Shown: positions 13,803 through 60,400, numbered from the whole stretch's first letter. The stretch is 60,400 bases of DNA, filler included, from Candidatus Woesearchaeota archaeon (GCA_046538795.1; 3 parts of 3 records of this genome joined end to end with filler, not necessarily neighbours in it); one strand, 5' to 3'. Translations and numbers: made by a program. The notes: generated by a model from the letters alone, not told the origin.

Positions 13803-14059
13803 TTTAATCACGTATGAGATTGACAATCATATATAAACCTTTTTGAATTAACTTGATTTATATAGATGTCTCAGAAAACTACTATTTTATGTTTAATTAA
13901 TACTAATCTGAATGTTTTTTTTAAAGTTTTGCTTTAATCATTTTTATGGCCCTCCTTTTATTGAAAATTTCGCATGAAACACGATTGAAACCTTGTTTCA
14001 ATGTGCGCAGAAATTTAAAAAATTTCTTTTCTTTTTTGTGGGGTTAAATACCCTGTCAT

Positions 14060-40999: not shown

Positions 41000-41000
41000 A

Positions 41001-43718: not shown

Positions 43719-44968
43719 ATAGAATTTTCTTCACATTCATACATGCATTCCTGAGACCCGTCATCAAATACCCATGAGCCCACGCACATAGGATGTATAG
43801 AATCCTTGTTCTTTATAGCACAGCATTCGTCCCTTGAATCAGGAGAGACTGTTGCACAACTTGCACCCAAAACCTCATCTCCATCTTTTGAGAACTCTTC
43901 TTTGGCATATACCTTTATGCCATCAACATAAACAGAAACAGTTCCAGGTTCATGCCCGGTTTTAACTTCTCCTGAAAAGTTCTGCAGATCTATCATCTGA
44001 ACACAGCCAGTTCCATCTTCATCAGATGATTTTATCTGTATGTCAAATTTTATCTGAACAGGATATGATTCCATGACCTGAACATCAAGATAAGCTTCAT
44101 GGCATGGGGTTGGCTTTGACTGGGTTATGTTATAAATAAGCTTTCCGTCCACGTAATTAAAATAATACTTATCTACAGGTTCTGAAACATAAGGCACATC
44201 ATTATCTGGAGAATCAGGCATGCCATCATCTTCGCAAGAACCTTCTTCCCAGAAATCAATGCTTCCAGATGAGCAAGCAACACAGCCATTTGAATATGTT
44301 TTTCCATCGTTTCCACAGACAGGTGCATACTCCATAGTGCAAAATTCTGCTGTCTTTTCTGATTCTGTGCAGTAATGCCTTCCTGTCATATTATACATAG
44401 ATATGTCGTTGATCTCACCATATGCCTTGCTAACATCAACTATTTTGCCTCCACACACATTAACATAGACTTCTGCTTCATCCACTCTTGAAGAATCCTT
44501 TATAGATTCCATCAGAAATCTTATTTCTGTAGTATAGCATTCTTCATCTCCATCAGGAACAGTACTTATAACAAGGATATTTCGCCCACCATAATCCTTG
44601 TAATCCTGCATTTTGAGAACATAGGCTTTAGCAAGATTCTCTGAAATAATCTCTTCAGGTATTGCTGATTCAAATGGTTCAGGACATACAACTGCGCACA
44701 CCCCTTCAATACATCTTGATTCATAAGGACAATGTGAAAGTATAAGATAATCTCCTGGAGTTGTGCAATCAGAATCTAAAGTACAGCTTTCACCTGTAAA
44801 ATCAGCAATAGAGAAATCATAAGACGTAAAATCTTCTTTGTTTGATCCACCATCATAACCATCATCTGGGTCGTCTAAATTTCTTGATGTGCAACCTGTA
44901 CTGAAAATTATTGATACTAAAATCACCAATAATCCAAATATCCTGATAAATGAATTTTTTTTTAGCAT
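43712..44968 (-). CDS. Secreted Cys-rich lipoprotein with Kazal-like domain
   Basis: Signal peptide with lipobox STGC; CTMEYAPVCGNDGKTYSNGCVAC. Confidence 0.78.
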   Translation of the reverse strand: MLKKNSFIRIFGLLVILVSIIFSTGCTSRNLDDPDDGYDGGSNKEDFTSYDFSIADFTGESCTLDSDCTTPGDYLILSHCPYESRCIEGVCAVVCPEPFESAIPEEIISENLAKAYVLKMQDYKDYGGRNILVISTVPDGDEECYTTEIRFLMESIKDSSRVDEAEVYVNVCGGKIVDVSKAYGEINDISMYNMTGRHYCTESEKTAEFCTMEYAPVCGNDGKTYSNGCVACSSGSIDFWEEGSCEDDGMPDSPDNDVPYVSEPVDKYYFNYVDGKLIYNITQSKPTPCHEAYLDVQVMESYPVQIKFDIQIKSSDEDGTGCVQMIDLQNFSGEVKTGHEPGTVSVYVDGIKVYAKEEFSKDGDEVLGASCATVSPDSRDECCAIKNKDSIHPMCVGSWVFDDGSQECMYECEENSIQ

Positions 44969-45024
44969 GAATATCACCTACCTATTTCTAGAATAAGGTT
45001 ATTTAAATATGTCTTTTTTTTGTT

Positions 45025-45036
45025 AGGTAAATGCCT
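45025..45036. promoter_or_regulatory. Putative operator AGGTAAATGCCT (site 1)
   Basis: Identical 12-mer at 51358; similar spacing to a TATA element. Confidence 0.55.
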
Positions 45037-45068
45037 TAAGAAAAAATATAAAAAAAAGAAAAAAAATC

Positions 45069-45239
45069 TTACCCCCTGATCTCACAATCCCATCCTTTTG
45101 TATCAGAGAACCTAAGAAATATTCTCTCTCTTATGCCCTTTGAGGATGTGAAAAAATCTTCTATTGTCTCATTTATAGAACTCTCAGCGATTATTTCCTC
45201 GCTAAAATCATCTCTTATCTCAGATACTTCTATATTCAT
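45069..45239 (-). CDS. Small acidic protein (56 aa), absent from ORF track
   Basis: GAGGTGA RBS; MNIEVSEIRDDFSEE...GWDCEIRG. Confidence 0.6.
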   Translation of the reverse strand: MNIEVSEIRDDFSEEIIAESSINETIEDFFTSSKGIRERIFLRFSDTKGWDCEIRG

Positions 45240-45328
45240 AATATCACCTCTTCTGGCTCCTGATCAATAAGTATATTGGAATATAATTCACATCTTCTAT
45301 TTTCATAGCTTACGCTGCATCTTTTCAT
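45236..45328 (-). CDS. Small peptide (30 aa), absent from ORF track
   Basis: GGGTGA RBS; stop overlaps the next start (ATGA). Confidence 0.45.
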   Translation of the reverse strand: MKRCSVSYENRRCELYSNILIDQEPEEVIL

Positions 45329-45549
45329 ACTTAATCACCCTTTGAATACATCTATCTTAAGATATATGAATTTAAATACCTTCCATCAACATATGTCCAG
45401 TGTCCAGTGCCCAACTCTAAGAAAAAACAATAAAGTACGCCCATTTGCCAAAAAGATATAATCTATGCAATCTCTTTCATCAAGAAATATATGATTCATG
45501 GCTGTATCTAAGATAATAGTGTGAGACAAAAATAGAATTTAAATCTAAG

Positions 45550-45758
45550 AAATAAAGAAAATCACTGCTCAAGCCTATTAGAAATTTAAAAAATTTCTAT
45601 CCCTAAAACTGACAGTTTTAGATATCCCCACACTTCAGTGTGGGGTATTAGGGCTTTCGCAGCTGAGGTGATTTTCTAATTTCAAAATTCGCCTTCAAAG
45701 GCGAGGTATTGCTCCAAAGGAGTACCCTTTCAGAATAAACCCAAAATTTAGAAATAAA
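45550..45758. mobile_element. Dispersed hairpin-rich element, copy B (expanded)
   Basis: Ends shared with 27058-27158; interior has four hairpins including CCCCACACTTCAGTGTGGGG. Confidence 0.7.
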
Positions 45759-45786
45759 AAAAAATCATATATCATATGTGAAAGTC

Positions 45787-46056
45787 CTAAAGAAGCGACC
45801 TTACATTATCTATATGATTAGCAACATCAGTTCCTTTCTTAGTAAGAGTAAGAAGCTTAAGCCTGCCTTGCTTCTCAAAGTTGATAAGCTCTGCCTTTTC
45901 CATCTCCTGAAGTATCTTTACAACATGAGAATATGTGCAGTCGATCTGTTTTGCAAGAGAAGATGCATATATTGCACTTTTAGAATTTTTTAGGGTAACA
46001 AGCATCATCGCTGGCTTTTCCCTGAATATTACATTAAAAATCTTATCATCAACCAT
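45787..46056 (-). CDS. MarR-like winged-helix protein
   Basis: YASSLAKQIDCTYSHVVKILQEME...GRLKLLTLTKKG. Confidence 0.85.
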   Translation of the reverse strand: MVDDKIFNVIFREKPAMMLVTLKNSKSAIYASSLAKQIDCTYSHVVKILQEMEKAELINFEKQGRLKLLTLTKKGTDVANHIDNVRSLL

Positions 46057-46328
46057 ATTAACACCCATAATTAATTATCTATAAAATATATTTTATTATG
46101 GTTCTTATCTAAAACAACCAAACAAAAATATACTCCACAACCTCGAGAACGAGGAAAAATGTTTTCTATAAAAACCTTTCGAAAAGATATGTCAAAAAAC
46201 AGGTGAAAGAAACAACAATGTGATTACTTACAGGCTTTTCAGGCAGATTTCATAAACTCATATAATATATCATGAGATGAAAATCCAAGAATTTCAATAA
46301 TTATTTATAATATCCATGTATCGCAAAA

Positions 46329-48269
46329 ATGATGCAAGAGATCTATTTTCCTCATAATGCGTTTAGACCTATTCAGGACAAGCTTGTAGAAAGAGTGATA
46401 TATGCAGTCGAACACAAGAAAAATCTGATAGTACATGCACCTACAGGTCTTGGAAAGACTGCTGCAACGATTGCACCTGCGCTCACATATGCAATAAAGA
46501 ATAACAAAAAAGTCTTTTTCCTTACAAGCAGGCATACCCAGCATAGGATAGCTGTAGAGACTCTCAAGCTTATCAGGAAAAGATATGATATAGATTTTTC
46601 AGTTGTTGACATAATCGGAAAAAAATGGATGTGTCCTCAGCCAGGAACAGATACGCTTTACTCAAACGAGTTCTCAGAATACTGCAAAGCTGTACGGGAA
46701 GACGGAAAATGCCAGTTCTATCTTAATACTAAAAACAAACAAGGAAAACTAACAGTTAAAGCACAGGCAGAACTTCACGAAATAAAACATTTTGATCTTG
46801 ACAAGCTGATTAAATATTGCACAGAAGAAGAGCTTTGTCCTTATGAAATGTCATTGGCACTTGCAGTTAGAGCAAACATAATAATAACTGATTATTACTA
46901 TATATTCAACCCGGCAATAAGAGAGATGTTTTTTTCAAAAACAGGCATAAGCTTAGAAGATGTAATTCTTATCGTCGATGAGGCTCACAATCTCCCTTTT
47001 AGGGTGCGTGATCTGATGACTCAGAGGCTTTCCAATATTCTTGTAAAAAGAGCGATAAAGGAAGCAAAAAAATATCAGTATGATGACATGGTTGAGCATC
47101 TTCTTGTGATAGAAAATTCTCTTAGGGATATTTCAAAAAGCATGATGGAAAAGAGTGAACCTGAAACAACTCCTGAAAAAAAGCTGGATTTTTTCTCAAG
47201 CAAAATAGAAAGCAGCATAAAGATTAAAGAAAATGAAAAGCTAGTATCAAAAGAAGAGTTCATGATAAAGATCAAAAAATACATAGAAAACTACGAACAG
47301 CTGATTGCTGATCTTGAATTTGTGGCAGATGAGATACGGGAAAAGCAGAAGATATCATATCTTGGCTCGATCGCCTCTTTTCTTGAATTCTGGCAGGATG
47401 AATCAGAAGGATTCACAAGAATACTTACAGTAAAACCTGGAAATAAAGACCCTATAACAATACTTTCCTACAGATGCCTTGATCCCAGCATAATCTGCAA
47501 GGATGTAATAAATAATACTCATTCCTCAATAATCATGTCAGGTACATTGATACCTGTTGAGATGTACCGAGATCTTTTGGGTGTCGAACTTCCTGAATCA
47601 AAGATCTTTGAAAGTCCATTTCCAAAAAACAATCGGCTAAATCTCATAATACCTGAAACAACAACAAAGTACTCGATGAGATCAGACGACCAGTTCAAAA
47701 GAATAGGAGAAGCATGCGCAAAGATAACCAATGCAGTTCCGGGCAATTCAGCTATATTTTTCCCAAGCTATTTCTTAAGAGACAGGGTCTATGAAACATT
47801 CACTAGCCTTTCTGAAAAAACAACATTTCAGGAGATAGCGGGTATGAACAAACAGGAAAAGCAGGAGATGCTTGAAAACTTCATGAAGTACAAAGACATG
47901 GGAGCAGTGCTTTTGGGAGCATCTTCAGGAAGTTTCGGCGAAGGAGTGGATCTTCCAGGAGACTTGCTGAAATGCGTTGTTGTTGTCGGTCTTCCTCTTA
48001 ACCAGCCAGATCTTGAGACAAAACAGCTTATAGAATATTTTGACAAGAAATTTGGCAAAGGCTGGGACTATGGTTACATTTTTCCTGCATTCAATAAGAC
48101 ACTTCAAAATGCAGGAAGATGCATAAGAAGTGAAAACGACAAGGGAATCGTAGTCTTTTTAGATGAAAGATATGCCTGGCCAAGATATGTCTCATTATTT
48201 CCAAATGACCTTAACCTGAAGATCACGAAAAAATATGAAGACGAGATTAAAAAATTCTTTGTAAATTAA
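46329..48269 (+). CDS. xpd: XPD/Rad3 (DinG-family) Fe-S DNA helicase
   Basis: APTGLGKT, four Cys ending in CPY, DEAHNL, MSGTL, FPSY, QNAGRCIRS. Confidence 0.92.
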   Translation: MMQEIYFPHNAFRPIQDKLVERVIYAVEHKKNLIVHAPTGLGKTAATIAPALTYAIKNNKKVFFLTSRHTQHRIAVETLKLIRKRYDIDFSVVDIIGKKWMCPQPGTDTLYSNEFSEYCKAVREDGKCQFYLNTKNKQGKLTVKAQAELHEIKHFDLDKLIKYCTEEELCPYEMSLALAVRANIIITDYYYIFNPAIREMFFSKTGISLEDVILIVDEAHNLPFRVRDLMTQRLSNILVKRAIKEAKKYQYDDMVEHLLVIENSLRDISKSMMEKSEPETTPEKKLDFFSSKIESSIKIKENEKLVSKEEFMIKIKKYIENYEQLIADLEFVADEIREKQKISYLGSIASFLEFWQDESEGFTRILTVKPGNKDPITILSYRCLDPSIICKDVINNTHSSIIMSGTLIPVEMYRDLLGVELPESKIFESPFPKNNRLNLIIPETTTKYSMRSDDQFKRIGEACAKITNAVPGNSAIFFPSYFLRDRVYETFTSLSEKTTFQEIAGMNKQEKQEMLENFMKYKDMGAVLLGASSGSFGEGVDLPGDLLKCVVVVGLPLNQPDLETKQLIEYFDKKFGKGWDYGYIFPAFNKTLQNAGRCIRSENDKGIVVFLDERYAWPRYVSLFPNDLNLKITKKYEDEIKKFFVN

Positions 48270-48460
48270 TCGTTTTTTTCAGTAGACTCGTTTTTTTCAG
48301 ATCTTAGTTCGGTTTCTATTATTGCTCCAAGCCCTGACTCTTCTGCCATGTCAAAACCAGTAACTTCATGTGAGCCTATGTAGTTTAATGATGGACTCCA
48401 ATATAATGGATCTGAAATCTTTCGTTCATTAAGATTATATCTTGTGAAAAAATCGTACAT
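48266..48460 (-). CDS. Small hypothetical protein
   Basis: AGGTGA RBS before ATG; 64 aa. Confidence 0.55.
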   Translation of the reverse strand: MYDFFTRYNLNERKISDPLYWSPSLNYIGSHEVTGFDMAEESGLGAIIETELRSEKNESTEKND

Positions 48461-48556
48461 ATTATCACCTTTAGAAAAGAAATACAGCTGAATATTTAAA
48501 ATTAGGTGAATTTAAAGGGACAGGTTTTATAAAAAACAGAAATAATTATTTATAAT

Positions 48557-48913
48557 ATGGCATTAGCTAGATCTTTGATAATTCTTGGAATATTCACATT
48601 CCTTTCTATAGTCGTATCATCTCTTCCATTATATTTTGCTGTAAAGATATTCAGGAAAAAAATCTCTTTCGGAAGGGTTATGCTTATAACAATTCTTTCA
48701 GGCATCATTGTTTCTCTCATAAATCTTTACTTTAGAAGCATAGGAGGTATTGTCTCATTCATCATACTCATCTGGGTATATAGAGAAGCCTTCAGACTTA
48801 AATGGCTCAATGCGCTTCTTGTCTGGTTCATACAGATAGTATTTGTATTTTTGCTGTTTGCTATAATCGCAGCCGTATCTTTTTTTGGATTCGGGTTGTC
48901 ATTAATATTCTAG
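48557..48913 (+). CDS. Membrane protein
   Basis: About four TM helices. Confidence 0.75.
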   Translation: MALARSLIILGIFTFLSIVVSSLPLYFAVKIFRKKISFGRVMLITILSGIIVSLINLYFRSIGGIVSFIILIWVYREAFRLKWLNALLVWFIQIVFVFLLFAIIAAVSFFGFGLSLIF

Positions 48914-48952
48914 AAAAAGAAATTTAAAAAAAAAGAAAAATAAAAAATATAT

Positions 48953-51271
48953 CTATCCAAGGACTTCTGCATCATCTACATCAATTGAAGCACCAGATGA
49001 AGTTGTTTCTTTTCTTACTGCAACATCTTCTTCATAGACAACAGGATATATCTCATCGTCTTTCTCAGAAACAGGAAGATCGATTGTTTCAATCTCCTCA
49101 AGGTCATCTGACAGATCATTTGCCATGATCCTTGTTTCTGAAAGCGTATATAAGACATCATCTATGTAGAGGCTTCTTACAATGCTTTTATCAGAGTAGA
49201 AATAATATCCGCTCTTAAGAAGGTCATCATCTGAATCAAGATGAGTTATCTTTCCTCTAAGATCAAAACCGTCTTCAGGAGTAAGCCCATAGACATAAGC
49301 ACCCTGAAAGATAAAGTCGCCGTAAGCCCACCTCATCTCTTCCTCATCAACATATTTCTCTGAATCAATCTCAGCCACCCTTATAGGAAGCACAAGAAGA
49401 TTCTTTTCTCTGTCGAAAAGAAATGCCTTATGGTTATAAAGGGCATCTGAATCAGTCCCCCTGTCGCCTATCTCGACATTTGCGATCTCTTTTGGATTTT
49501 CAACATCAGAGACATCAAATAAAGACATCTTTATTCCCTGCTGCCAGGCACGATCATTTTCCTTGTCTTCTTCTGTTGATTTTCCTATTCCGATTATATG
49601 ATTCTCATCATAAGGATGCAGATAATCCGAATATCCAGGTATCTTAAGCTGGCCTAGTATCTCGGGATCTTCAGGATCTTCAAGTCCTATGACAAACAAT
49701 GGATCTATTGTCCTGAATGTAACCATATAGGCCCTATCCTGCATAAACCTTACAGAATATATTCTCTCGCCGGGCGCTATATCTTCTATCTCGCCTACTA
49801 TATCAAGATCCATATCAAGGACATAAAGATTGTTTGCAGATTCTTCATCGCTCCACCAGTTATTGATTGTTGTCGCAATCCTGAAATAATCTCCATCCTC
49901 ATCTATGGAAAACTGGTTCAACGGAGTTCCCTGAACCTCTCCCTGAGCTTCATGTTCTATCTCAGAACCATCAATAGATATTCTGTGTATTATTGTTTTT
50001 TGCCTTTCTCTTGCTATTTCTTCCTGTATTTCCTGAACTTCAGACTCTATTTCTTCAGTAAGTTCTTCAAGGTCTTCAGGATCAAGAGATTCTGCGTACT
50101 CTGCAATTATATATTGTATCTCATTTATTTTTGTGGATTCTCTCAGATCATAACCTTGTATTTTCTGTATCTCATCCTGTACATCAGAAGGAAGGATATC
50201 CATCATTACCTCTTCTATTATCCGCTTTTCTTCATGGTAGTAAGGTATCTGCTTTTGATTTGTAAGATATATGTTGTCTTCTGACACATAAACATTCTGA
50301 CTGTATCCCTTAAGGATCGTCTTTTCTGTAAAACTGTTGTCGTTAAGATCTACTGCCATTATGGTTGAAAGCTGTCTTGATGTATCAGGCATGTCAAAAT
50401 AATATATATCTGTAACAGGTATTGTCCTTTCTCCACCCTTGTAATATATCACAGGCGGTTCAAATGTAGATCCTGTCCACTGATTTATTATGATATATGC
50501 ATAATCTCCAATCATCCTTGAATCATAATAGCTTCCTTCTACAAGGATATTCTCTTCTTCAATAGGATCTTCTTTATCGCTTATGTCAAATATCCTTATG
50601 AAAGTGTATGATGTTCTCGGGTAATATGGGTAAGGCATAATTCTTGCAACATCAGAAGAAGCACCACTGCTATCGGATTCGTCTCTTTTGTATTCATAGC
50701 CCATCATAACAAGCTTGTCATCATTTATGAATATCTCGTTCGGATTAACATCATCTATATTGAGTTCTGAAATGATCTCAGCATCATCTGCAGGATATGC
50801 TTTAACAATATATAGCTTAGAATTTGCAACATAATATATGTATTCACCATCAGTCTTTACAATGTCTGCCTCATCGACACCTTCTACCTGGATATTTGTT
50901 CCTGAATAATCAGATGTACCGCTTGCTGACGTGCTTGATGCAGATCCATCATCGCTATCAGATGCCCTAGGTGCTTGAACGCTTTCTTCCATAACATCCA
51001 TTGCAACACCTGAAGATTTTGCTCCTCCCATCAGGTTGTTACTACTTGAGTCTCCTGACGAAGAAGATTCGATAAATTCAGTGTATTCTTCAATACTTTC
51101 AAATCTCTTCAAAGAACCATCAAATTCAGAAAGATCTGTATTCCACTCATCACCATTTCCATAAGGTGGAGTATATATTCCCTGCATGCAACCTGTAATA
51201 AGTAAAGTTGCAAGAAATATAGCAAAAAGCATTACAGATGATCTCTTTGCATTATTTTTTTTGTTTTCCAT
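48953..51271 (-). CDS. Secreted beta-propeller domain lipoprotein
   Basis: Lipobox ITGC; YSGTNIQVEGVDEADIVKTDG, LNQFSIDE, GERIYSVRF, DPLFVI, KIPGYSDYLHP. Confidence 0.88.
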   Translation of the reverse strand: MENKKNNAKRSSVMLFAIFLATLLITGCMQGIYTPPYGNGDEWNTDLSEFDGSLKRFESIEEYTEFIESSSSGDSSSNNLMGGAKSSGVAMDVMEESVQAPRASDSDDGSASSTSASGTSDYSGTNIQVEGVDEADIVKTDGEYIYYVANSKLYIVKAYPADDAEIISELNIDDVNPNEIFINDDKLVMMGYEYKRDESDSSGASSDVARIMPYPYYPRTSYTFIRIFDISDKEDPIEEENILVEGSYYDSRMIGDYAYIIINQWTGSTFEPPVIYYKGGERTIPVTDIYYFDMPDTSRQLSTIMAVDLNDNSFTEKTILKGYSQNVYVSEDNIYLTNQKQIPYYHEEKRIIEEVMMDILPSDVQDEIQKIQGYDLRESTKINEIQYIIAEYAESLDPEDLEELTEEIESEVQEIQEEIARERQKTIIHRISIDGSEIEHEAQGEVQGTPLNQFSIDEDGDYFRIATTINNWWSDEESANNLYVLDMDLDIVGEIEDIAPGERIYSVRFMQDRAYMVTFRTIDPLFVIGLEDPEDPEILGQLKIPGYSDYLHPYDENHIIGIGKSTEEDKENDRAWQQGIKMSLFDVSDVENPKEIANVEIGDRGTDSDALYNHKAFLFDREKNLLVLPIRVAEIDSEKYVDEEEMRWAYGDFIFQGAYVYGLTPEDGFDLRGKITHLDSDDDLLKSGYYFYSDKSIVRSLYIDDVLYTLSETRIMANDLSDDLEEIETIDLPVSEKDDEIYPVVYEEDVAVRKETTSSGASIDVDDAEVLG

Positions 51272-51357
51272 AGGATTTCACCTCAGGTCTCAACATGAAT
51301 TTTTATATTTTAAAGAATATTTTAATCATTGATTTATTTAAATGCTGTTTTATATTA

Positions 51358-51400
51358 AGGTAAATGCCTAATCAACAACAATCCTTAATCAACAACAATC
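51358..51400. promoter_or_regulatory. Putative operator AGGTAAATGCCT (site 2) plus 15-bp direct repeat
   Basis: 12-mer at 51358-51369; TAATCAACAACAATC at 51369 and 51386. Confidence 0.55.
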
Positions 51401-51454
51401 TTTATATTTATTTAATGCAAAACCCTTTTAAATAGATATCTATTTACAATAAAT

Positions 51455-52936
51455 ATGGATGATACTACAATCAAGCTTCTCGGAGCAGTAGGCATACTTT
51501 TCTTAGGCTTCATAATATCAAAAGTAGGAAGCAAGATACTCAACAGGTCATATAGAAAGAGGAACAAGCTTAAGACATTCAAGAAAAATCCTTTTTCGAG
51601 CCTGTTTTCAAATGTGGTAATCACGCTTTCGATATTTGTTGCGCTTTTCTTTCTCCAGATAACCATAACAGAAGAATTCTTCCTGAACATATATAATATA
51701 CTTCCAGATGTTCTTTCGTTTGTGCTTCTTATTTCACTTATCATAATAATTGTGAACATACTCATGAACGTAATCGAGAAGATAATGGACAAGTCAGGTT
51801 TATCAAATCTTGTAAAAGAATACGATCATGGATTTATATTTAACATTTTCTTAGGAATACTCAGGATAATACTTTATGCAGTCTTAGGCATATTTGCCCT
51901 AAACTCTTTGGGGATCGCAGGCAATGTTTCAACTACGCTTAGCTATGTGCTGTATCCTATGTTTGTCTTTCTTTTGGTTATAATATTCTACGGCACAAAG
52001 GAATTTGTAGCAAACTTTTTTGCAGGCATGTATATCAAAAACTCACCTAATTTCCAGGTGGGACAAAGGATGAGATACAAAGATATTGTCGGAACAATAG
52101 AAGAGGTAAATAATGACTCTGTCATGATATCTACTGAATCAGGATATAACCATTACATACCTAACCAGTATTTTTTAAAGCACATAATATCTTTCAAGGA
52201 AGTTGATACTGATATCCCGACTCTTGAAGAGATCAAGGAAAATTATGTTGCACAGACTCCAAGTTTCTGCGGACCTGCATCTGCCGCCATGGTTCTTGAT
52301 ATATTCGGTTATGGATTCACACAAGAGCAGATAGGCAAAGAAGCAGGAGCAGAAGTAGGTAAAGGTACAAAACCAGACATGCTCATAAAAGCTGTAGAGA
52401 AGCTCACGAAAAAGAACGTTATCGGAACATGGATCAATATAGATATGATCAATAATCTTCGTGAAGAGGTAATGTCTTGGCTTGACGATGATGCTCTTAT
52501 AATAATAGATTACAAGAAAAACGTGCTTTTTCCTGAAAGCAAGGGCGCTCATTACTCAATTGCATTAGCTGTTGAGGGAGAAGAGCTTGTAGTTCTTGAT
52601 CCAAGCTCAAAAAAAGGCGGTGTTTTCCTTGCAGACTATAAAAAGATTGAACGTGGAATGGACACATATTCTGAACTTATAGGAGGAAAGCGCGGATACA
52701 TAGTTCTAGCACCTAAAGATTCAAGAGCATACAACAGGATAAAACAAGGACTTATATATTCTGATTTCAACCTTTATACAAAGCTCAACAGAAGACTTCA
52801 GAAAAGCTTCAATGAGCTTGTGAAAAAAGCAGATTTTCTTGAAAAAATCATACCAGGAAGAGTTCGTGATTTCATAGATAAAAAAAGACAGAAAGAGAAG
52901 ATTTCTCGTGTGTGGCGGCCAAAGCCCAGAGCGTGA
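51455..52936 (+). CDS. MscS-like channel fused to C39-like cysteine peptidase
   Basis: TM helices, ANFFAG, FQVGQR..GTIEEV..IPN; then QTPSFCGPAS, HYS, LDPS. Confidence 0.8.
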   Translation: MDDTTIKLLGAVGILFLGFIISKVGSKILNRSYRKRNKLKTFKKNPFSSLFSNVVITLSIFVALFFLQITITEEFFLNIYNILPDVLSFVLLISLIIIIVNILMNVIEKIMDKSGLSNLVKEYDHGFIFNIFLGILRIILYAVLGIFALNSLGIAGNVSTTLSYVLYPMFVFLLVIIFYGTKEFVANFFAGMYIKNSPNFQVGQRMRYKDIVGTIEEVNNDSVMISTESGYNHYIPNQYFLKHIISFKEVDTDIPTLEEIKENYVAQTPSFCGPASAAMVLDIFGYGFTQEQIGKEAGAEVGKGTKPDMLIKAVEKLTKKNVIGTWINIDMINNLREEVMSWLDDDALIIIDYKKNVLFPESKGAHYSIALAVEGEELVVLDPSSKKGGVFLADYKKIERGMDTYSELIGGKRGYIVLAPKDSRAYNRIKQGLIYSDFNLYTKLNRRLQKSFNELVKKADFLEKIIPGRVRDFIDKKRQKEKISRVWRPKPRA

Positions 52937-53539
52937 TCATAAATTATCATGATTATATTCTGTGATATGTCCTTCATATAAGTCTCTTATCATTGCATCC
53001 ATCTGTTCAGATGAAACATCTGAAGATATAACCTTACATCTTCCCCCAATTTTATCTAACTGAAAAGGTCCTGCATTAAAGATATTCCATTCATTAGTAT
53101 AGTTATTGATTATACATAGTAAATCATTGTCACCACTATTTCTTTGATGGGGCCAGGTGATCTTATAAGTAGATAATGCAAACCTGGACGAATCATCATG
53201 TCTTACAAAGAATTCAGGTCGATCATCATAATGCATATTGGCCATCCATTGACAGGTTTCCAATACATGATATGGATTACCTAAACGTCTCCATGACAAA
53301 CCCTTTCTATGTTCAGATCTATTGTCAAAAAAAATCTTTGATATATCTTCTATCGATAAGTTGAAAGCAATCTCATTGCCGTCTCTGTCTCGGTCTGAGA
53401 TTAAGATATAAGAATCCCAAGACTTTTTTAACCTACCAGGCAGCAGATATTCCAGCAAAACCCTGCCTGAAAAAAATACAACATCATCAAGATCTAAACC
53501 AGATTCGTCTAGTTTCATCTGACTTTTCCGTCCAAACAT
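52937..53539 (-). CDS. Hypothetical protein
   Basis: 200 aa ORF from ATG 53539 after a TATA-like element; no recognised motif. Confidence 0.6.
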   Translation of the reverse strand: MFGRKSQMKLDESGLDLDDVVFFSGRVLLEYLLPGRLKKSWDSYILISDRDRDGNEIAFNLSIEDISKIFFDNRSEHRKGLSWRRLGNPYHVLETCQWMANMHYDDRPEFFVRHDDSSRFALSTYKITWPHQRNSGDNDLLCIINNYTNEWNIFNAGPFQLDKIGGRCKVISSDVSSEQMDAMIRDLYEGHITEYNHDNL

Positions 53540-53896
53540 ATTTGAAAAGAATAGACTTATTGTATAAAAAAGTATCTTCAAAAGACTCAAGTGGATTAAA
53601 CAGGATTCAAGAGGATAAAACAAGGACTCAGGTATTTTTTGCAGTTCTCAGGCACAACAAGATCTTCAATCATATAATAAAGAAATGAAACCAAATCATC
53701 AATTATTTTCTAAAAAACAACAAGTGTCAAAAACATTTTAGCAACCATAATGTATTTTAGTATACAAAATAGTATACTAGTTCAAAAAAACACAACATTT
53801 ATATACTAGTTGCATCATAGAGATATTTAGATAATAAAAATTGAGTTTGAGTGAGAAAACAAAAATCAATCGCCCCCAACTATTATTCAAAAACTC

Positions 53897-54177
53897 GCAT
53901 TGATAGCTATTTATCAATGCTTCATTCACGATAAAGAAGATTCCCTATACCACTATTCTATCTTCTACCAAACCAACCACCCCACTAACCAACCACAATA
54001 GGGAATCTTTCTTTTTTTTCATATTCATGGTAAAGGGCTCCTCATACCCTACTTTCTTACCCCTCACACACTCACAACACACACAACGAGGAGCTCTTCC
54101 TTTTCTTTTTTTAACTTAAAATCTTAAAACCAAACATGGCACATCACATCACGAGAGGACAGGATTTTCCTGTCCTT
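53897..54177 (+). ncRNA. Putative structured non-coding RNA(s)
   Basis: Four stem-loops; two have 11-12 bp stems, G-free 44-49 nt loops and T-rich tails. Confidence 0.5.
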
Positions 54178-54353
54178 CATTCTTTAACTTTTATGATTTC
54201 AGATCTGGCTTTAGATATTTTCAAAGAGATAAAAGATTGCAGCTATAATACAGAACCAAATATCACACACCTTTTATGATTATCTCAATGATCTTAAGAG
54301 ATTTATTGTCCCATATACAAATTCAAGAAAAATTATTTAAATAAAAAAGACTT

Positions 54354-54884
54354 ATGAAAAATATGTCGCAGATTGAATTAGCACAAGAATATTGCAAAAT
54401 ATTTCATGAAGGCATATTCAGAAAAGATAATGTCACGCCTTATTATACTCATCCATTTGCAGTCGCAGACATTCTAAAAAACTATGGTTATTCTGATGAA
54501 GAAACACAAATAATAGCATATCTTCATGATACCATTGAAGATACACCACTGCGTCTTAAAGAGATAAGAACTGTATTTGGCCCTACTATTTCTCTTGCAG
54601 TTTTCCAGCTTTCGAGAAATAAAGGAGAGACTCTTTCAGGAGAAAAACTAAATGATAAGCAGTATATGGACAGGATTCTTTATTCATGGCCGCGCGTCCA
54701 AAGAGTAAAAATAGCAGACATGATCGATAATACAAAAACACTTGAAGCCCTTTCTGATTCAGGAATAGAAAAAAAGATCAAAGAATCAAACGGGTTCTAT
54801 ATCCCGCTTGGAAAAAAGGTTGCACCTATGATGGTAGGAGAACTTGAAGAAAATATTGAAAATTATCTTCTTAAAAGCGCATAA
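54354..54884 (+). CDS. HD-domain hydrolase, Mesh1/SpoT small alarmone hydrolase-like
   Basis: HEGIFRK..PYYTHP..VA, YLHDTIEDT, FG, VKIADMIDN. Confidence 0.85.
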   Translation: MKNMSQIELAQEYCKIFHEGIFRKDNVTPYYTHPFAVADILKNYGYSDEETQIIAYLHDTIEDTPLRLKEIRTVFGPTISLAVFQLSRNKGETLSGEKLNDKQYMDRILYSWPRVQRVKIADMIDNTKTLEALSDSGIEKKIKESNGFYIPLGKKVAPMMVGELEENIENYLLKSA

Positions 54885-54946
54885 TAAACCACTACCAAGT
54901 AACAACAAACAAAACATTTATAAACTAACTATATTTTGGTCGCGTT

Positions 54947-55975
54947 ATGAGGCTAAAAAACAAGATCTTTTTAGGACTTGGAACATTAAGTTTAGCTTTA
55001 GCATCATATGGTACTTTCGCTATTAATAACAATAATATAGGAGCTTTAGAACCAATATCTCTTGATTCTATTGTTTACACAGATTATTTCTATGAATCAC
55101 AGATAATTCCTTCAGAAAATAATCAAGAATTTGCGTCTGAAGTTTCTTATATGATTCCTGAAGAAAAAACAATTGAAAATAATATTCTTGAAGAAGAGAT
55201 CGAAAGATCATATTTAGAAAACTTGCCAAACAGGAATTCTCAGGATGGAAGAACAAGACATCTAGTAGAATATGGGGATATGCTCAATCAAATAGCAAGA
55301 GAATATGCAGGCCCAAATGCCTCAGCAAACGAAGTATACATGATGGTAAGAGGTATAGAAGATATCAATTCTATCCCAAACATAAACTCATTAAGTGTAT
55401 TTTCACTTCTTACAATACCAAAAGAATCTAATGATCCTATCGACAGTATTTTGTATGAAAACATGGATAAAGAAGAAAGGATAAGATTCTTAGAACGAAG
55501 AACACCTGTTCAGGCAAACAATTATATTGAAGATTTTGTAGAAATCTCAAAAAATATTGGTATTGATCCAAGAATCTCCCTGGCTATTTCTTGGAAAGAA
55601 AGTGAATTTAATGAGAACGCAAGAGCAGGATATTATAATTCCGATGGAAGATTTATAGTAACAGGACAGGGAATCATGCAGATAAATCCTCAAGTTCATG
55701 CTGTTTCTGACAATTACAGGGAAAATATAGAATATGCCCTTGGTTATTTCAAAGATATGTATGAAAATATAAGAGAAGCAACTGATTCTGATCAGATTGC
55801 GCTTCTTAGGACATTTGCATCCTACAATGCAGGTCCTGCAAGAATTAATAATCTGATTGCATCAGGAGACTGGGACGGAAGAACAATAGAAAATATGCCC
55901 ATAGAAGAGACAAGGATATTTCTTTCAAAGATAAATGATTATCTCTCTCACATGGACGCATATTTGTTTGATTAA
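54947..55975 (+). CDS. Membrane-anchored LysM + SLT lytic transglycosylase
   Basis: N-terminal hydrophobic helix; HLVEYGDMLNQIA...N.I.N...L...LTIP; AISWKESEF, GIMQINP, ASYNAGP, ETR. Confidence 0.88.
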   Translation: MRLKNKIFLGLGTLSLALASYGTFAINNNNIGALEPISLDSIVYTDYFYESQIIPSENNQEFASEVSYMIPEEKTIENNILEEEIERSYLENLPNRNSQDGRTRHLVEYGDMLNQIAREYAGPNASANEVYMMVRGIEDINSIPNINSLSVFSLLTIPKESNDPIDSILYENMDKEERIRFLERRTPVQANNYIEDFVEISKNIGIDPRISLAISWKESEFNENARAGYYNSDGRFIVTGQGIMQINPQVHAVSDNYRENIEYALGYFKDMYENIREATDSDQIALLRTFASYNAGPARINNLIASGDWDGRTIENMPIEETRIFLSKINDYLSHMDAYLFD

Positions 55976-56095
55976 ATTAAATAAACTCTTTTTTCACTTT
56001 GAAGTAGTCAAAAAGCGAAACATTTATAAAGGAAAAACACCATTATTACTGTATAATAGTCATAATTTAGTCTAAGGACTAAAAGGGGTGGAAAA

Positions 56096-56515
56096 ATGGC
56101 TGAAGCAACAAAAGATCTCGAAAAGATTGTTGAAAAACCTGTGAACAAAAATGGTCTTAGGAGAACATTGACAAGGGGTGCTATTCTTACAGGCCTTGGA
56201 ATAGCAGCAGCACTTAGCGTATATTCAAACATAAAAAATAATGAAGAACCAGTTCCTGTTGAATCTGAATATGGAACACAGGTTGTTGCTGAATATACTC
56301 AGGATAATGATGATTATGGTTTTGCAGATATTGCATTTGGTTTGGGACAAAATGCCTATGATCCAATAGATGCATCTGGTGCAACAATAAGCGATGTTAT
56401 TGGAAATGCTTTTAATGAACAGACAGATTATGAATTCCTTCAAAAAGATCATCCATACACGTTCAGGTTGTATGAAGATGGAAATATTGAAGTAGTTCCT
56501 GCAAAATACGAATAA
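56096..56515 (+). CDS. Membrane-anchored acidic protein
   Basis: Basic N-terminus, one TM helix, acidic C-domain; GGGGTGG RBS. Confidence 0.75.
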   Translation: MAEATKDLEKIVEKPVNKNGLRRTLTRGAILTGLGIAAALSVYSNIKNNEEPVPVESEYGTQVVAEYTQDNDDYGFADIAFGLGQNAYDPIDASGATISDVIGNAFNEQTDYEFLQKDHPYTFRLYEDGNIEVVPAKYE

Positions 56516-56530
56516 AATCAGGTAATCAAA

Positions 56531-57118
56531 ATGAATAGACCAGAAAGAAAAGCAAAAAGAGAAGAAAAAAAAGCTAAATTTAAGAAATCGATAGATGATT
56601 TTGCAGATGGATCTTTCATGAAAATCGCAAGACAGCCTGCAAGATTAGTTTCAAGGATATTTGGCAAAAAAGATACTGAGAAATCAACAGCAAGAAAATA
56701 TGCTGAAAGTATTGTAAGTTTTCCAGTAACAACTGCATTTTATTCAACTCTTGCACTTGCAGCACTTTCTTATGCTAAGGGTTTTGTCACAGGAACCATA
56801 AATCCTACAGAATACAACACAAGAACAGAATATGTTGATAATTTGAAAATTGCTCAAGAAGGAGATTCATTTTGGGGTACAGCTCATGATATCGGTGCTT
56901 TATGCATTGATGGAAACAGGATTGAACTTACAGCAGACATGATGGAAGATTATCATAATGAACATATTGGAGAAAGGATGCTTTGGCCTGGTGACGAAAT
57001 GGGTGCAGCAGTTGCTGTCAATTATCCAAGAAGGCTTGCTTCAGGACATAATGAGGGTGTTGAATCTTTAAAAGAAACAGCAAGATATTCCAAAGAAAGA
57101 ATTGATGAAATCTTTTAG
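56531..57118 (+). CDS. Membrane-anchored protein with degenerate LysM-like domain
   Basis: One TM helix; IAQEGDSFWGTA...N...LWPGDEM resembles LysM consensus. Confidence 0.65.
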   Translation: MNRPERKAKREEKKAKFKKSIDDFADGSFMKIARQPARLVSRIFGKKDTEKSTARKYAESIVSFPVTTAFYSTLALAALSYAKGFVTGTINPTEYNTRTEYVDNLKIAQEGDSFWGTAHDIGALCIDGNRIELTADMMEDYHNEHIGERMLWPGDEMGAAVAVNYPRRLASGHNEGVESLKETARYSKERIDEIF

Positions 57119-57199
57119 AGGTAAAAGATGATATTCTTATTCGTTTTCATAATCCTTTTCAAAAAAGCCAATGAAAAGGCAAATATTTTCTTATCACTT

Positions 57200-57445
57200 T
57201 TAGAGTGGAAATGAATCATCCTTTAATTTGAAACGGGGCAGAGGATTATCTCTTGTTATATCAAGATACATAACTTCTGACATAATAGTGTTTATTGCAT
57301 GTTCTCTTGCCTCATCTTGTGTAACAAGACCTAGCAGATATATTCTGTGCTGAGGCTCAGAATAATCCCCTAAAAAATCAGTTTGGCATGGAAAATGATC
57401 AATCAAAACCAAAAGTCCAGAATCATCTTCCTCAATTAAAATCAC
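57200..57445 (-). CDS. Hypothetical protein
   Basis: 81 aa ORF with GTG start; no motif. Confidence 0.4.
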   Translation of the reverse strand: MILIEEDDSGLLVLIDHFPCQTDFLGDYSEPQHRIYLLGLVTQDEAREHAINTIMSEVMYLDITRDNPLPRFKLKDDSFPL

Positions 57446-57519
57446 AAATAAAGCAATTTCTTAAAAAATAATCTTTTCAAACCCAAACTTTTTAACCAAA
57501 AAACAATTCTCAAAAATAC

Positions 57520-58746
57520 ATGAACCTATGCTACAGGTGCAAAGGAAGGGGATTTTGCGGACATAAGTGCACTATTTTTGAAAAGCTTAAAGTCCAGAAA
57601 AAGGTAAATCTCAATTTCAAGCAGGATTTCTATGGAAAAACACCTAATGTCTTTGTAGGAAAATTTGGCTACCCTAATGTGAATGTAGGATTATTATCGA
57701 CAGAGCAGGAAGCATACAAAGAAAATGATAATCCTCTTTTATGGAGCAAAAACAATTATTCAGTCGGAAAAGTTGTTGATCTAAGATCTGAACTTGTTAA
57801 CAGCTCATTTTCTTCAAACATTAATATTCCAAGACAAATTACAAGAAACAGGTTTGAAGAGCTTTCAAAAGAATTATCGCTCTCAAAAAAACCTGTTGAT
57901 ACAGAACTCCATCTTAAGCAAAAACCACAGTTCAGGCTTTCTTTCAATCAGGAGGCAGCTCCTCATGGACCTAACTCAAAACTCGAAAAGGCAGAAGCGA
58001 CAGAAAATATAAGAATTCCAACAAAAATAGACAAGGCAGTATCTGATTATGACTATAAAGCAGGATCAGCCCTATCAACCCTGTATAAGCGATTCGACGA
58101 GCATTACTTAACAAAAATACTTAGTGTCGGAAATCTGGGAATAAAAACACAAAGAAAACTTGTACCTACAAGATGGGCAATAACTGCTGTCGATGATACA
58201 TTAGGAAAAGACGGAATAAAAGAAATCAGGGATTTTTCCAACAATATGGACTATACAGCCTATTTTGGAGGCCATATGGGAAATTACTACATTGCAATGT
58301 TCTTTCCTGACTGCTGGAGTTATGAGCTTTTTGAATCATATCTTCCTAAATCAGTCTATAATCAGGGAAATGAAACACCTTATTCAACAGATTACGAATC
58401 ATTTTCAGGAAGAAAAGAGTATGCCTATGAGACAGCAGGAGGTTATTATGCAGCAAGACTTCCTGTCATAGATTTTCTCAAAGAAAAAAAACGCCAGTCT
58501 TCAGTAATTCTCCTAAGATTCATAACAAGCGAATACTGGGCTCCTTTAGGTGTTTGGGTGGTGCGCGAATCTGTTAAAAAAACTCTTAAAACAAAAGGCA
58601 TAACCTTTTCTTCAAAAGAGCTTATGATAGAATATGCAAAAAAGCTTGTAAAAAAGAAATTTGATGTTGATATTAAAAGGATACTTGAAAAAAGCAAGCT
58701 TTTAAACAACATGAAAAACCAGTCAAAATTAAACAGATTTTTTTAA
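57520..58746 (+). CDS. nreA: DNA repair protein Nre
   Basis: CYRCKGRGFCG, VFVGKFGYP, KLVPTRWAITAVD, GGYYAAR, PLGVWVVRE, PIP box QSKLNRFF. Confidence 0.92.
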   Translation: MNLCYRCKGRGFCGHKCTIFEKLKVQKKVNLNFKQDFYGKTPNVFVGKFGYPNVNVGLLSTEQEAYKENDNPLLWSKNNYSVGKVVDLRSELVNSSFSSNINIPRQITRNRFEELSKELSLSKKPVDTELHLKQKPQFRLSFNQEAAPHGPNSKLEKAEATENIRIPTKIDKAVSDYDYKAGSALSTLYKRFDEHYLTKILSVGNLGIKTQRKLVPTRWAITAVDDTLGKDGIKEIRDFSNNMDYTAYFGGHMGNYYIAMFFPDCWSYELFESYLPKSVYNQGNETPYSTDYESFSGRKEYAYETAGGYYAARLPVIDFLKEKKRQSSVILLRFITSEYWAPLGVWVVRESVKKTLKTKGITFSSKELMIEYAKKLVKKKFDVDIKRILEKSKLLNNMKNQSKLNRFF

Positions 58747-58805
58747 TTTCTTTACAAAAAAAGAGTACAAAACCAATGGTTTTATAAGCGAGTTCTCACT
58801 GACTA

Positions 58806-59351
58806 ATGGTTATGAATGATGTGTATTTTAAGATATATGGAAAAGCAGAGTCCATAGACGATATAATCAATGATATCCATTCTATGACAGGTGGCATGGA
58901 GGTTTTAGTAGATTCAACTCTTAGGATGTACTACAAACATATGCCAACACTTTTTGACGGCTCAAGAACAGTTTCTGTAAGATTTCCAGATAAAGGCGCA
59001 CTATACATTCCTTATGGAGATGAAGATAATTCTCACCATAAAATCTGTTATGTAAGAAATCCAGACCATTTCAAAGATCCAGGCAATGAGCCTGAATATG
59101 TCCCGTTCGGAACAGCAGATATAGATAGGTTTGCTTATGCTCACATAGGACACATACCTGAAAGTGTTCTTAAGAAAGCATGCTATGATTCAACAGATGA
59201 ACTTATCAAAGAATTATCAGAGATCGTTGAAACCGATATCCCCATAAGAATAAGCGATCCTGTAACAGTTGATTATATCTCAAATTTCAGACCAAATGAA
59301 CACATGAAAGAGATCATGGACAAATATGGATTGGATTACAAGAGGCAATAA
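58806..59351 (+). CDS. Hypothetical protein
   Basis: 181 aa ORF downstream of a TATA-like element. Confidence 0.7.
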   Translation: MVMNDVYFKIYGKAESIDDIINDIHSMTGGMEVLVDSTLRMYYKHMPTLFDGSRTVSVRFPDKGALYIPYGDEDNSHHKICYVRNPDHFKDPGNEPEYVPFGTADIDRFAYAHIGHIPESVLKKACYDSTDELIKELSEIVETDIPIRISDPVTVDYISNFRPNEHMKEIMDKYGLDYKRQ

Positions 59352-59352
59352 G

Positions 59353-59766
59353 ATGAATTTAGAAGACCAAGCATTTGAAGGATGTCTTGATACTGAAATT
59401 GAAAAAACACTTACAAAGACAGGATTATCTGATGATTATGTCAACGAATACTGTTCACTTGATTCAGCAATACAGCTATATGAACTTGGAAGAGAAGATC
59501 TTATCAAAAAGTTAACTCCATTAAAAAGATATGATGAAAGATATCCTGATCTTGTAACAGATGAAAACAGAGAAAGAGTAGAAAAAGTTAATACTATTGT
59601 TGATGAGATCAATGAAAATATTGAATCAGGAGCAATCAATGTCCATGAATATAAACATCTATTAGGCGCAATTGATTACCTTATATTCGACAGGTTAAGA
59701 CCATTTGCAAGAAGGCTTGGTCTTGATGAAAAAGAAGTAAAAAAAACAATTAAAAAATATGTTTAA
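59353..59766 (+). CDS. Hypothetical protein
   Basis: ATG 59353 directly after the previous stop; helical and charged. Confidence 0.7.
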   Translation: MNLEDQAFEGCLDTEIEKTLTKTGLSDDYVNEYCSLDSAIQLYELGREDLIKKLTPLKRYDERYPDLVTDENRERVEKVNTIVDEINENIESGAINVHEYKHLLGAIDYLIFDRLRPFARRLGLDEKEVKKTIKKYV

Positions 59767-60398
59767 TTATTCTTCCAAATTTCTATTGCAGATATAATCT
59801 GTGCAAGAGATATACTTGATGATGATTTCCATAATTCAATATAATTATTAAGTTCAGAAATATCTATATCCATGTCAGAATTAAGGTCAGCTTCATGGAT
59901 GTGTTCAGAAATAACATCATCTAATATTTCAACATTACATATATTGACAGGATCATAAGCCTGAAAACCCATAAAGTTAATCTCAATAGTATTTGCCTGT
60001 TCTGTCCTAAAAGAATAATCTTTTGCAATCATTATTTCAGCACCTGATTCAGGAGTTACATATACATCATAATTTCCTGATGTTACATTTACATTGATCA
60101 TAAAATAATAACTAGAAAATCCTGAATATTGAACCTCTGTTTCATAAGAATATGAATCTCCGTCACGGACATCAATTAATCCGTCAGGGCTGAATCTTAC
60201 CAAAACTGCATATTCGCTCCAGTGTGTCCCCTCAAAAGAGGATAGTCCAATGACTGAATCAAGCTCATCAATTTCAGGAGTTGCATTAAATGCTATGCTA
60301 AAAAAACCATCCTGAGATGTTATCGCAACATTCTGGAAATCACGTTCAGCAGCATAACAAGATTCATCTGAAACGTCTTCTTCACAAGTGCCTGAAAA
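59763..60398 (-). CDS. C-terminal part of a probable secreted protein (beta-sandwich + dockerin/EF-hand-like tail); continues beyond the window
   Basis: Frame is open to the window edge; ends HEADLNSDMDIDISELNNYIELWK...IISAIEIWK. Confidence 0.75.
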   Translation of the reverse strand, partial: FSGTCEEDVSDESCYAAERDFQNVAITSQDGFFSIAFNATPEIDELDSVIGLSSFEGTHWSEYAVLVRFSPDGLIDVRDGDSYSYETEVQYSGFSSYYFMINVNVTSGNYDVYVTPESGAEIMIAKDYSFRTEQANTIEINFMGFQAYDPVNICNVEILDDVISEHIHEADLNSDMDIDISELNNYIELWKSSSSISLAQIISAIEIWKNN

Positions 60399-60400
60399 AC

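Follow-up and report, generated by a model that had tools for sequence, protein, structure and literature searches.

The stretch analysed here (the window) comprises 60,400 nucleotides of a Candidatus Woesearchaeota genome (GCA_046538795.1) and consists of three contigs joined by runs of N. The locus under study lies on contig C81 (window 41000-60400), where three co-oriented open reading frames, ORF1, ORF2 and ORF3, precede nre (Table 1). The original prediction, made from the sequence alone, had described them as a multi-gene, membrane-anchored set of LysM proteins headed by an SLT enzyme, a toolkit for attaching to bacterial walls and breaching or scavenging them. ORF1 has a clear domain anatomy, a catalytic Glu and a promoter of its own, and is conserved across its archaeal family; its identification as an exported LysM-SLT enzyme, predicted to be aimed at bacterial peptidoglycan, is well supported. 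It belongs to an already reported kind of archaeal enzyme, and the anchored LysM trio is unsupported.

Table 1. Features of the locus and its context (window positions, unless a contig is named)
Feature	Position	Strand	Basis
ORF1, 342 aa: signal/anchor, acidic spacer, LysM, SLT (predicted GH23 family-1 lytic transglycosylase)	54947..55975	+	Pfam SLT, AlphaFold, orthologues
ORF1 hydrophobic segment, residues 7-25	54965..55021	+	Kyte-Doolittle 19-residue mean 1.53; helix 3-26 in model, low pLDDT
ORF1 LysM domain, residues ~102-160	55250..55426	+	profile, orthologues, AlphaFold fold match, hhalign probability 97%
ORF1 SLT domain, residues ~187-338; E218, GIMQ, YNAG; Ala227, Phe324	55505..55960	+	Pfam, Foldseek, fold search, alignment
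BRE-TATA promoter of ORF1	54912..54924	+	TATA box 30 nt before ATG
T6 run right after ORF1 stop; likely archaeal terminator	55989..55994	+	sequence
Separate BRE-TATA promoter ahead of ORF2	56018..56030	+	one of two pattern sites in 54001-57700
ORF2, 139 aa orphan; one hydrophobic segment (28-46), acidic outer part, no LysM signal	56096..56515	+	motif, hhalign, Atlas, homologue searches
ORF3, 195 aa orphan; basic N-terminus, hydrophobic segment 61-79, possible degenerate LysM ~105-158	56531..57118	+	motif, hhalign, Atlas
nre, archaeal DNA repair protein (context for archaeal contig)	57520..58746	+	Pfam Nre_N 253 bits, Nre_C 109 bits
xpd/rad3 helicase (context, contig C81)	46329..48269	+	TIGR00604 272 bits vs cut-off 247
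Exported M23 endopeptidase, N-terminally hydrophobic	G000:C51:24735-26072 = L063:6736-8073	- (L063)	Pfam M23 36 bits

Anatomy, transcription and authenticity of ORF1

The SLT domain reported in the original prediction is borne out by reading frame, motifs and Pfam (38.7 bits against a cut-off of 21.3). The catalytic E218 is encoded by GAA at 55598-55600, followed by GIMQ (242-245) and SYNAG (292-296, with YNAG at 293-296). E218-S219 aligns with the QES of Slt, i.e. with the single catalytic Glu of the ES motif; this Glu is invariant in all 61 aligned SLT rows, and E218, Q245 and Y293 are retained in 9/9 rows of the archaeal family. By sequence, Slt, LtgA and Slt70 are the best of 27 hits (E ~2e-10 to 6e-10), and Foldseek matches the SLT domain to Slt70 (E 4e-5). 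The AlphaFold model (mean predicted local distance difference test score, pLDDT, of 82) finds lytic transglycosylases at Z 11-14.6, led by MltF (Z 14.6, root mean square deviation (rmsd) 2.1 A, 145 aligned residues), MltC (14.1) and MltE (13.4), with LtgA also in the group at Z 13.4-14.6. With SLT fold and Pfam match, a Glu in ES, and GLMQ- and AYNAG-type motifs, ORF1 bears the marks of a family-1 enzyme, sharing fold, Glu-Ser, GxMQ and YNAG with the bacterial Slt70, MltC, MltD, MltE, MltF and LtgA (PF01464, GH23); against the NCBIfam Slt70 equivalog it reaches 18 of 536 bits, far below the cut-off.

The LysM domain, also predicted, is confirmed as a divergent member of its family. Pfam LysM gives 12.7 bits (E 0.12) on ORF1 alone, under the cut-off, and no match in the whole genome, a result that speaks for the divergence of these LysM domains and for nothing more. 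A custom profile, built from 33 LysM segments of homologues with ORF1 left out, ranks ORF1 first at 25.5 bits, the runner-up of the 1432 genome ORFs scoring 7.1 bits, and 4/7 close orthologues exceed the Pfam cut-off. In the model, residues 102-160 form a beta-alpha-alpha-beta unit (block pLDDT 87-97), carrying the G[DE]xLxxIA and LxIP motifs, that superposes on the solved LysM 4uz2 at Z 7.8 and rmsd 1.3 A over 48 residues. Being below the Pfam cut-off, ORF1 would be missed by a Pfam screen. The pairing of LysM with SLT is that of MltD, which carries its LysM C-terminally; in ORF1 LysM lies N-terminal of SLT, and unlike the bacterial family-1 enzymes ORF1 has no lipobox.

The N-terminal hydrophobic segment is flanked by a net charge of +3 before and -28 after. 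Its hydropathy is modest, so it could be a cleaved Sec signal as well as a signal anchor; of the claimed membrane anchoring the segment itself stands, and anchoring is uncertain.

The pattern AAAnnTTTA[AT]A, a B recognition element plus TATA box (BRE-TATA), marks transcript starts in this genome: it is found upstream of 28/234 divergent gene heads, 32/239 wide-gap genes and 2/173 tight-gap genes, has a density of 0.019 per kb in coding DNA, and places 29 of its 66 sites in the 30-34 nt bin. These statistics support the TATA-type promoters noted originally, and within 54001-57700, both strands included, the pattern occurs twice, ahead of ORF1 and ahead of ORF2. From the spacing of TATA box and ATG, the ORF1 transcript is probably leaderless. 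Since ORF1 and ORF2 each have their own BRE-TATA element, with the T6 run between them, ORF1 seems monocistronic and ORF2-ORF3 looks like a separate unit, in which ORF3, 15 bp from ORF2, is probably co-transcribed with it. A scan for sigma-70 promoters, irrelevant in an archaeon, stayed at chance level (16 vs 15.1).

It could be argued that the locus is bacterial or viral DNA mis-assembled or mis-binned into an archaeal genome, given that this is a metagenome-assembled genome (MAG) in 97 contigs (1.34 Mb, 97.6% complete, 1.6% contaminated) of which the window joins three. Contig context, bridging, promoters and orthologues refute this reading, and its probability is negligible. As originally stated, nre and xpd share contig C81 with ORF1, and an archaeal small subunit (SSU) rRNA is present in the genome. 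X1 and X2, mat metagenome runs of separate studies, either of which may be the source sample, each have one contig that spans, at even depth, window 54907-60400 and window 50348-59509, respectively; the stretch from ORF1 through nre is therefore bridged twice, and a chimera very unlikely. GC content is flat and ORF1 codon use is native (codon adaptation index at the 78th percentile), while promoters are archaeal and orthologues occur in five other archaeal genomes. Viral matches, at least 46 loci, are distant (23-32% identity among the matches listed), and no plasmid match was found. The data sets in which the sequence words occur are microbial mat metagenomes, two runs having at least half of the words, and no RNA data set is listed among them.

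Distribution, bacterial relatives and other wall-related genes

SLT domains of any kind occur in 40/60 related genomes; ORF1 itself has a far narrower range. Orthologues with 33-41% identity are present in 5/6 genomes of the same family, each in a different neighbourhood. Among 400 genomes of the order, full-length matches are confined to five same-family genomes (416-455 bits), the next score being 69 bits; a further match, at 48 bits, extends over both LysM and SLT within a frame of 1,134 aa. Among 400 genomes of the phylum, only the one same-family genome gives a full match. A search of 1.84 billion representative proteins yields 37 that match ORF1, and a JGI metagenome scan returned two distant SLTs and no close neighbourhood.

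Next after the archaeal family come ~15 proteins, 250-530 aa long, which combine two LysM domains with a lipobox-like Cys (LysM2-SLT). Most score 78-110 bits, against 48 or less for general SLTs, and the alignment covers LysM, linker and SLT. Six of their seven named loci are MAGs of Thermodesulfobacteriota/Deltaproteobacteria, the five looked up falling in one family (loci L032-L037; genomes G401-G405, G416 and G417). The gene is present in 7/17 genomes of that family and 7/21 of its order, in unrelated neighbourhoods; across 301 genomes of Thermodesulfobacteriota the sole match beyond the family is limited to the LysM part. Unlike ORF1, these relatives are patchy in occurrence and have two LysM domains, a lipobox-like Cys (preceded in L032-L037 by an extension of 130-150 aa) and Lys or Arg for the Gly of GLMQ (14/15). 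In one 250-aa protein, P0023, a degenerate SLT belonging to the bacterial clade is preceded by an N-terminal part that, judged by eye, looks HU-like.

For the SLT domain, trees were built from 61 of 68 rows, from 32 of those and from 36 plus one, incomplete, duplicate and very weak rows being dropped; P0002, P0007, P0013, P0022, P0028 and most bacterial-type proteins, which lack a taxon label, were assigned to their groups by similarity. The phylogeny joins the archaeal family with the Thermodesulfobacteriota LysM2-SLT proteins at 96/97 in the 32-row tree and 92/94 in the 36-plus-one tree, and ORF1 branches apart from the other order-level archaeal SLT domains sampled. The bacterial clade nests among archaeal rows in the 32-row tree, weakly (84/67), and two near outgroups, neither of them labelled, cluster at 99/99 with an SLT that comes from the archaeal family's class but from a different order. 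Because of this nesting, the outgroup grouping and the loss of Gly in 14/15 bacterial copies, the evidence leans towards a transfer from archaea to bacteria; its direction is not established, as archaeal monophyly is not rejected by the approximately unbiased (AU) test (p 0.278).

Elsewhere in the genome, an exported M23 endopeptidase is encoded on contig C51, unlinked to ORF1, with homologues in 5/6 same-family genomes. Its zinc motifs HxGxD and HxH are intact, with H218, D222, H383 and H385 invariant in the five aligned of six found. Judged by motifs and conservation, it is a likely cross-link-cutting partner of ORF1, and a better one than ORF2-ORF3. Directly downstream lies an archaellin gene (C51:24122-24688 = L063:6126-6689, minus strand; Pfam 87.5 bits), which hints at motility. 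Contig C87 harbours a long cluster with pilin-like single-transmembrane genes (C87:24043-32001, i.e. L062:6047-14002, minus strand, and on to ~46000). Within it, the catalytic Glu column is occupied by Ser in an SLT protein of 900 aa, and the first zinc motif, HxGxD, is replaced by FPGLM in a C39+M23 protein of 653 aa. Hence the large C87 enzymes look disarmed, while the stand-alone ORF1 and the C51 M23 protein look intact.

Within this 97.6% complete genome, no Mur ligase matched, which suggests that it builds no wall of its own, and neither did the wall-sugar recycling families AnmK, GH3, GH20 and amidohydrolase (NagA-type). Taken together, these negatives would make it more plausible that the archaeon locally breaches a bacterium it touches than that it scavenges. 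Nor did the genome yield NlpC/P60 or DXP reductoisomerase.

ORF2, ORF3 and the rest of contig C81

Following ORF1, the original prediction saw two co-oriented single-transmembrane proteins, one bearing a degenerate but recognisable LysM pattern and the other a far weaker one. Each does have one hydrophobic segment; the LysM part finds no support in ORF2 and is weak in ORF3. The two-block LysM motif of ORF2 ranks 430 of 1432 ORFs and is equalled by 286/2000 shuffles, so it is no better than chance; its hhalign score is reached by 149/150 shuffles, and an Atlas structure search gives no LysM row among 10 (Atlas model pLDDT 0.42). In ORF3, where no Pfam LysM match is found, the motif ranks 7 of 1432 with 1/2000 shuffles as high, the region having been picked by eye beforehand, and hhalign gives a probability of 14% over 15 columns only, with 0/150 shuffles as high (best shuffle 19.14 vs 19.15). 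The signal is confined to the N-terminal block. All four rows listed by the Atlas search are LysM-containing clusters, at template modelling scores of 0.27-0.39, i.e. below 0.5; a single-sequence AlphaFold model of the outer part (pLDDT 34) was uninformative and left unused for fold search. ORF3 may carry a degenerate LysM.

Both proteins are orphans. Among 5.8 billion proteins, ORF2 and ORF3 match only themselves (proteins of 0.55-1.75x their length considered), NCBIfam and PHROGs give no match for either, and among 300 order genomes one weak match apiece (E 8e-4 and 0.0025) lies within a far longer frame. The two genes (56096-57118) have a GC content at third codon positions of 0.17, which places them in the bottom 1% of genes in the genome, and their genome-relative codon index is the highest of all; AT-rich origin or high expression may be the cause.

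A single functional surface kit made up of three anchored proteins, all with LysM, would fit the adjacency, shared orientation and single hydrophobic segments of ORF1, ORF2 and ORF3 and the weak LysM signs in ORF3. The multi-gene set does not survive closer analysis, however, and we think it improbable: ORF2 has its own promoter beyond the T-run that follows ORF1 and shows no LysM signal, neither gene has a credible homologue, and ORF2/ORF3 homologues stand beside ORF1 orthologues in 0/5 neighbourhoods (contigs of 2.6-17 kb). Moreover, single N-terminal hydrophobic segments are common in this genome (102 of the 578 ORFs of 100-250 aa), so that it is unremarkable for two neighbouring genes to have one each. 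We infer that the two genes encode a lineage-specific pair of surface proteins distinct from ORF1.

Other features of the contig are a MscS mechanosensitive channel fused to a C-terminal C39-like peptidase domain (window 51455-52936, plus strand) and, at 41001-44977, a HAD-GH65 phosphorylase fusion with a convergent gene for a Kazal-domain exported protein. A beta-propeller lipoprotein gene (48953-51271) contains in its N-terminal part a strain-variable surface segment, where ~19 substitutions cluster at 50900-50981 in run X2. Within the window as a whole, repeats of ~215 bases (45547-45762) and ~90 bases (13956-14045) recur at 83-99% identity on many other contigs of the genome and are possibly similar to miniature inverted-repeat transposable elements (MITE-like).

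Proposed function, alternatives and relation to known systems

The reading we favour, and hold to be moderately probable, is that ORF1 encodes a modular peptidoglycan hydrolase, stand-alone and exported, whether anchored or secreted, which, with its M23 partner, opens the bacterial wall locally. A small DPANN-type archaeon, presumably of the Woesearchaeales, would export ORF1 via Sec, and the acidic spacer would keep LysM and SLT outside the cell. There LysM would grip the strand of N-acetylglucosamine (GlcNAc) and N-acetylmuramic acid, and E218 would cleave it by the anhydro-forming mechanism of family 1, perhaps slowly given the loss of two accessory residues, while the unlinked M23 endopeptidase would cut peptide cross-links. 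Acting together, the two enzymes could locally perforate the wall of a bacterium that the archaeon touches, giving access to the cell and not a meal of wall sugars.

Several observations weigh against this proposal. ORF1 lacks the accessory Ser and Tyr of family-1 enzymes. F324, at a position which we take to correspond to Y192 of MltE, stands for the Tyr of ETxxY, which is retained in 7/7 sister-genus, 30/37 outgroup and 3/15 bacterial-relative rows. A227 stands for the Ser at E+9, which 56/59 other aligned SLT rows keep, and which numbering in the text cited from PMC5841429 maps to S73 of MltE. In that text S73 and Y192 of MltE are treated as active-site residues; a literature search for MltE mutant data found none. 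As both residues are replaced, the activity of ORF1 may be lowered, although a beta-hairpin insertion at 226-241 of the AlphaFold model might provide alternative contacts. In addition, the LysM-like start of the C51 M23 protein is weak (hhalign 5% and 13%), GH23 also includes a chitinase (3w6b, fold match Z 10.5), and a Gram-negative wall lies under an outer membrane, for which no route across was identified.

Three alternatives were considered. ORF1 might mainly be an adhesin, binding peptidoglycan through LysM and a weakened SLT cleft and cutting little, as the loss of both Ser and Tyr in ORF1 and its closest relative P0002 (2/2) would allow and as the C87 SLT and M23 proteins, with their altered catalytic and zinc-binding positions, exemplify for enzyme-to-binder decay in this same genome. 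However, E218, GIMQ and YNAG are intact, all seven sister-lineage copies retain Ser and Tyr, and the hairpin may compensate, so that we consider this unlikely. Still less probable is that ORF1 breaks down wall debris of dead cells in the mat as a source of sugar or amino acids and leaves living cells alone: the data sets with the sequence are indeed mat metagenomes, and debris feeding has been proposed for Pacearchaeota (in the text cited from PMC11537232), but the lack of matches to the recycling families would leave anhydro-sugars unusable by known routes, though stem peptides could still be used. The toolkit of the original prediction is accordingly best kept for its exported LysM-SLT enzyme, its scavenging half being weakened.

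A target other than peptidoglycan, on the model of the GH23 chitinase from Ralstonia sp. A-471, appears very improbable, be it chitin or another GlcNAc polymer (extracellular polymeric substances of the mat, archaeal glycan). LysM binds chitin too (as given in PMC12352652) and chitinase activity exists within GH23 (as given in PMC10455584), which the 3w6b match recalls; yet lytic transglycosylases rank higher both by fold and by sequence, the chitinase is not among the 27 hits, GlcNAc catabolism (GH20, amidohydrolase) was not found in the genome, and the archaeal family also keeps an M23 peptidase.

Inferring a bacterial host or prey, as the original prediction did, is reasonable and already in print. 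Murein transglycosylases in Woesearchaeota and Pacearchaeota, together with the host or prey idea, are stated in the parts cited of PMC8204110 and PMC9723730 and repeated in that of PMC11537232. ORF1 resembles the fam00969 GH23 proteins described there in being an extracellular SLT in a small DPANN archaeon with the same proposed role, and differs in its 342 aa and its LysM: the class reaches 3,000 aa, and the main texts of PMC8204110 and PMC9723730 do not mention LysM. That large class is better matched by the 900-aa C87 protein than by ORF1. According to the sections cited of PMC12352652 (Strock et al.), modular peptidoglycan hydrolases occur in 175/3,706 archaeal genomes, prominently in Nanoarchaeota, with M23 in four Nanoarchaeia, and they kill bacteria, the tested enzymes being halobacterial M23-PG_binding_1 proteins. 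ORF1 agrees with the definition given there, with SLT plus LysM, nre on its contig and an archaeal SSU rRNA, and like those hydrolases it has one catalytic and one wall-binding domain and an export signal; unlike them, it is conserved across its family and not patchy. The LysM+SLT architecture may already be listed in that survey. What is added here is the family-wide SLT and M23 pair, the lack of matches to recycling enzymes, the narrow bacterial homologue set and the loss of accessory residues. A literature search of titles and abstract openings, with few subscription papers, gave no report of a Woesearchaeota-Desulfobacterota link or of LysM specifically in archaea.

Whether a DPANN archaeon can live on a bacterium is an open question in the cited papers, proposed from gene content, and ORF1 does not settle it; stripped of a host lead, ORF1 would add one more case to a feature that two thirds of related genomes share. 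Bacterial homologues have been used to predict the targets of archaeal hydrolases (in the text cited from PMC12352652), and the narrow Thermodesulfobacteriota set could be a lead to a possible bacterial host. Shared genes indicate past contact, not a host. One may go further and see in the gene a cross-domain host-parasite footprint, the archaeal family living on the Thermodesulfobacteriota family, the two for that reason being nearly the only ones to share the gene, and the gene having moved from parasite to host, in line with bacterial copies that are patchy, lipidated, altered at GLMQ and nested in one tree; we regard this as unlikely. Being small, soluble and expressible, the ORF1 protein lends itself to testing together with the M23 enzyme, and the narrow set of bacterial homologues offers a concrete target for fluorescence in situ hybridization. 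If the footprint were real, it would name the first specific bacterial host for a Woesearchaeales lineage, breached with an SLT and M23 pair conserved throughout the archaeal family.

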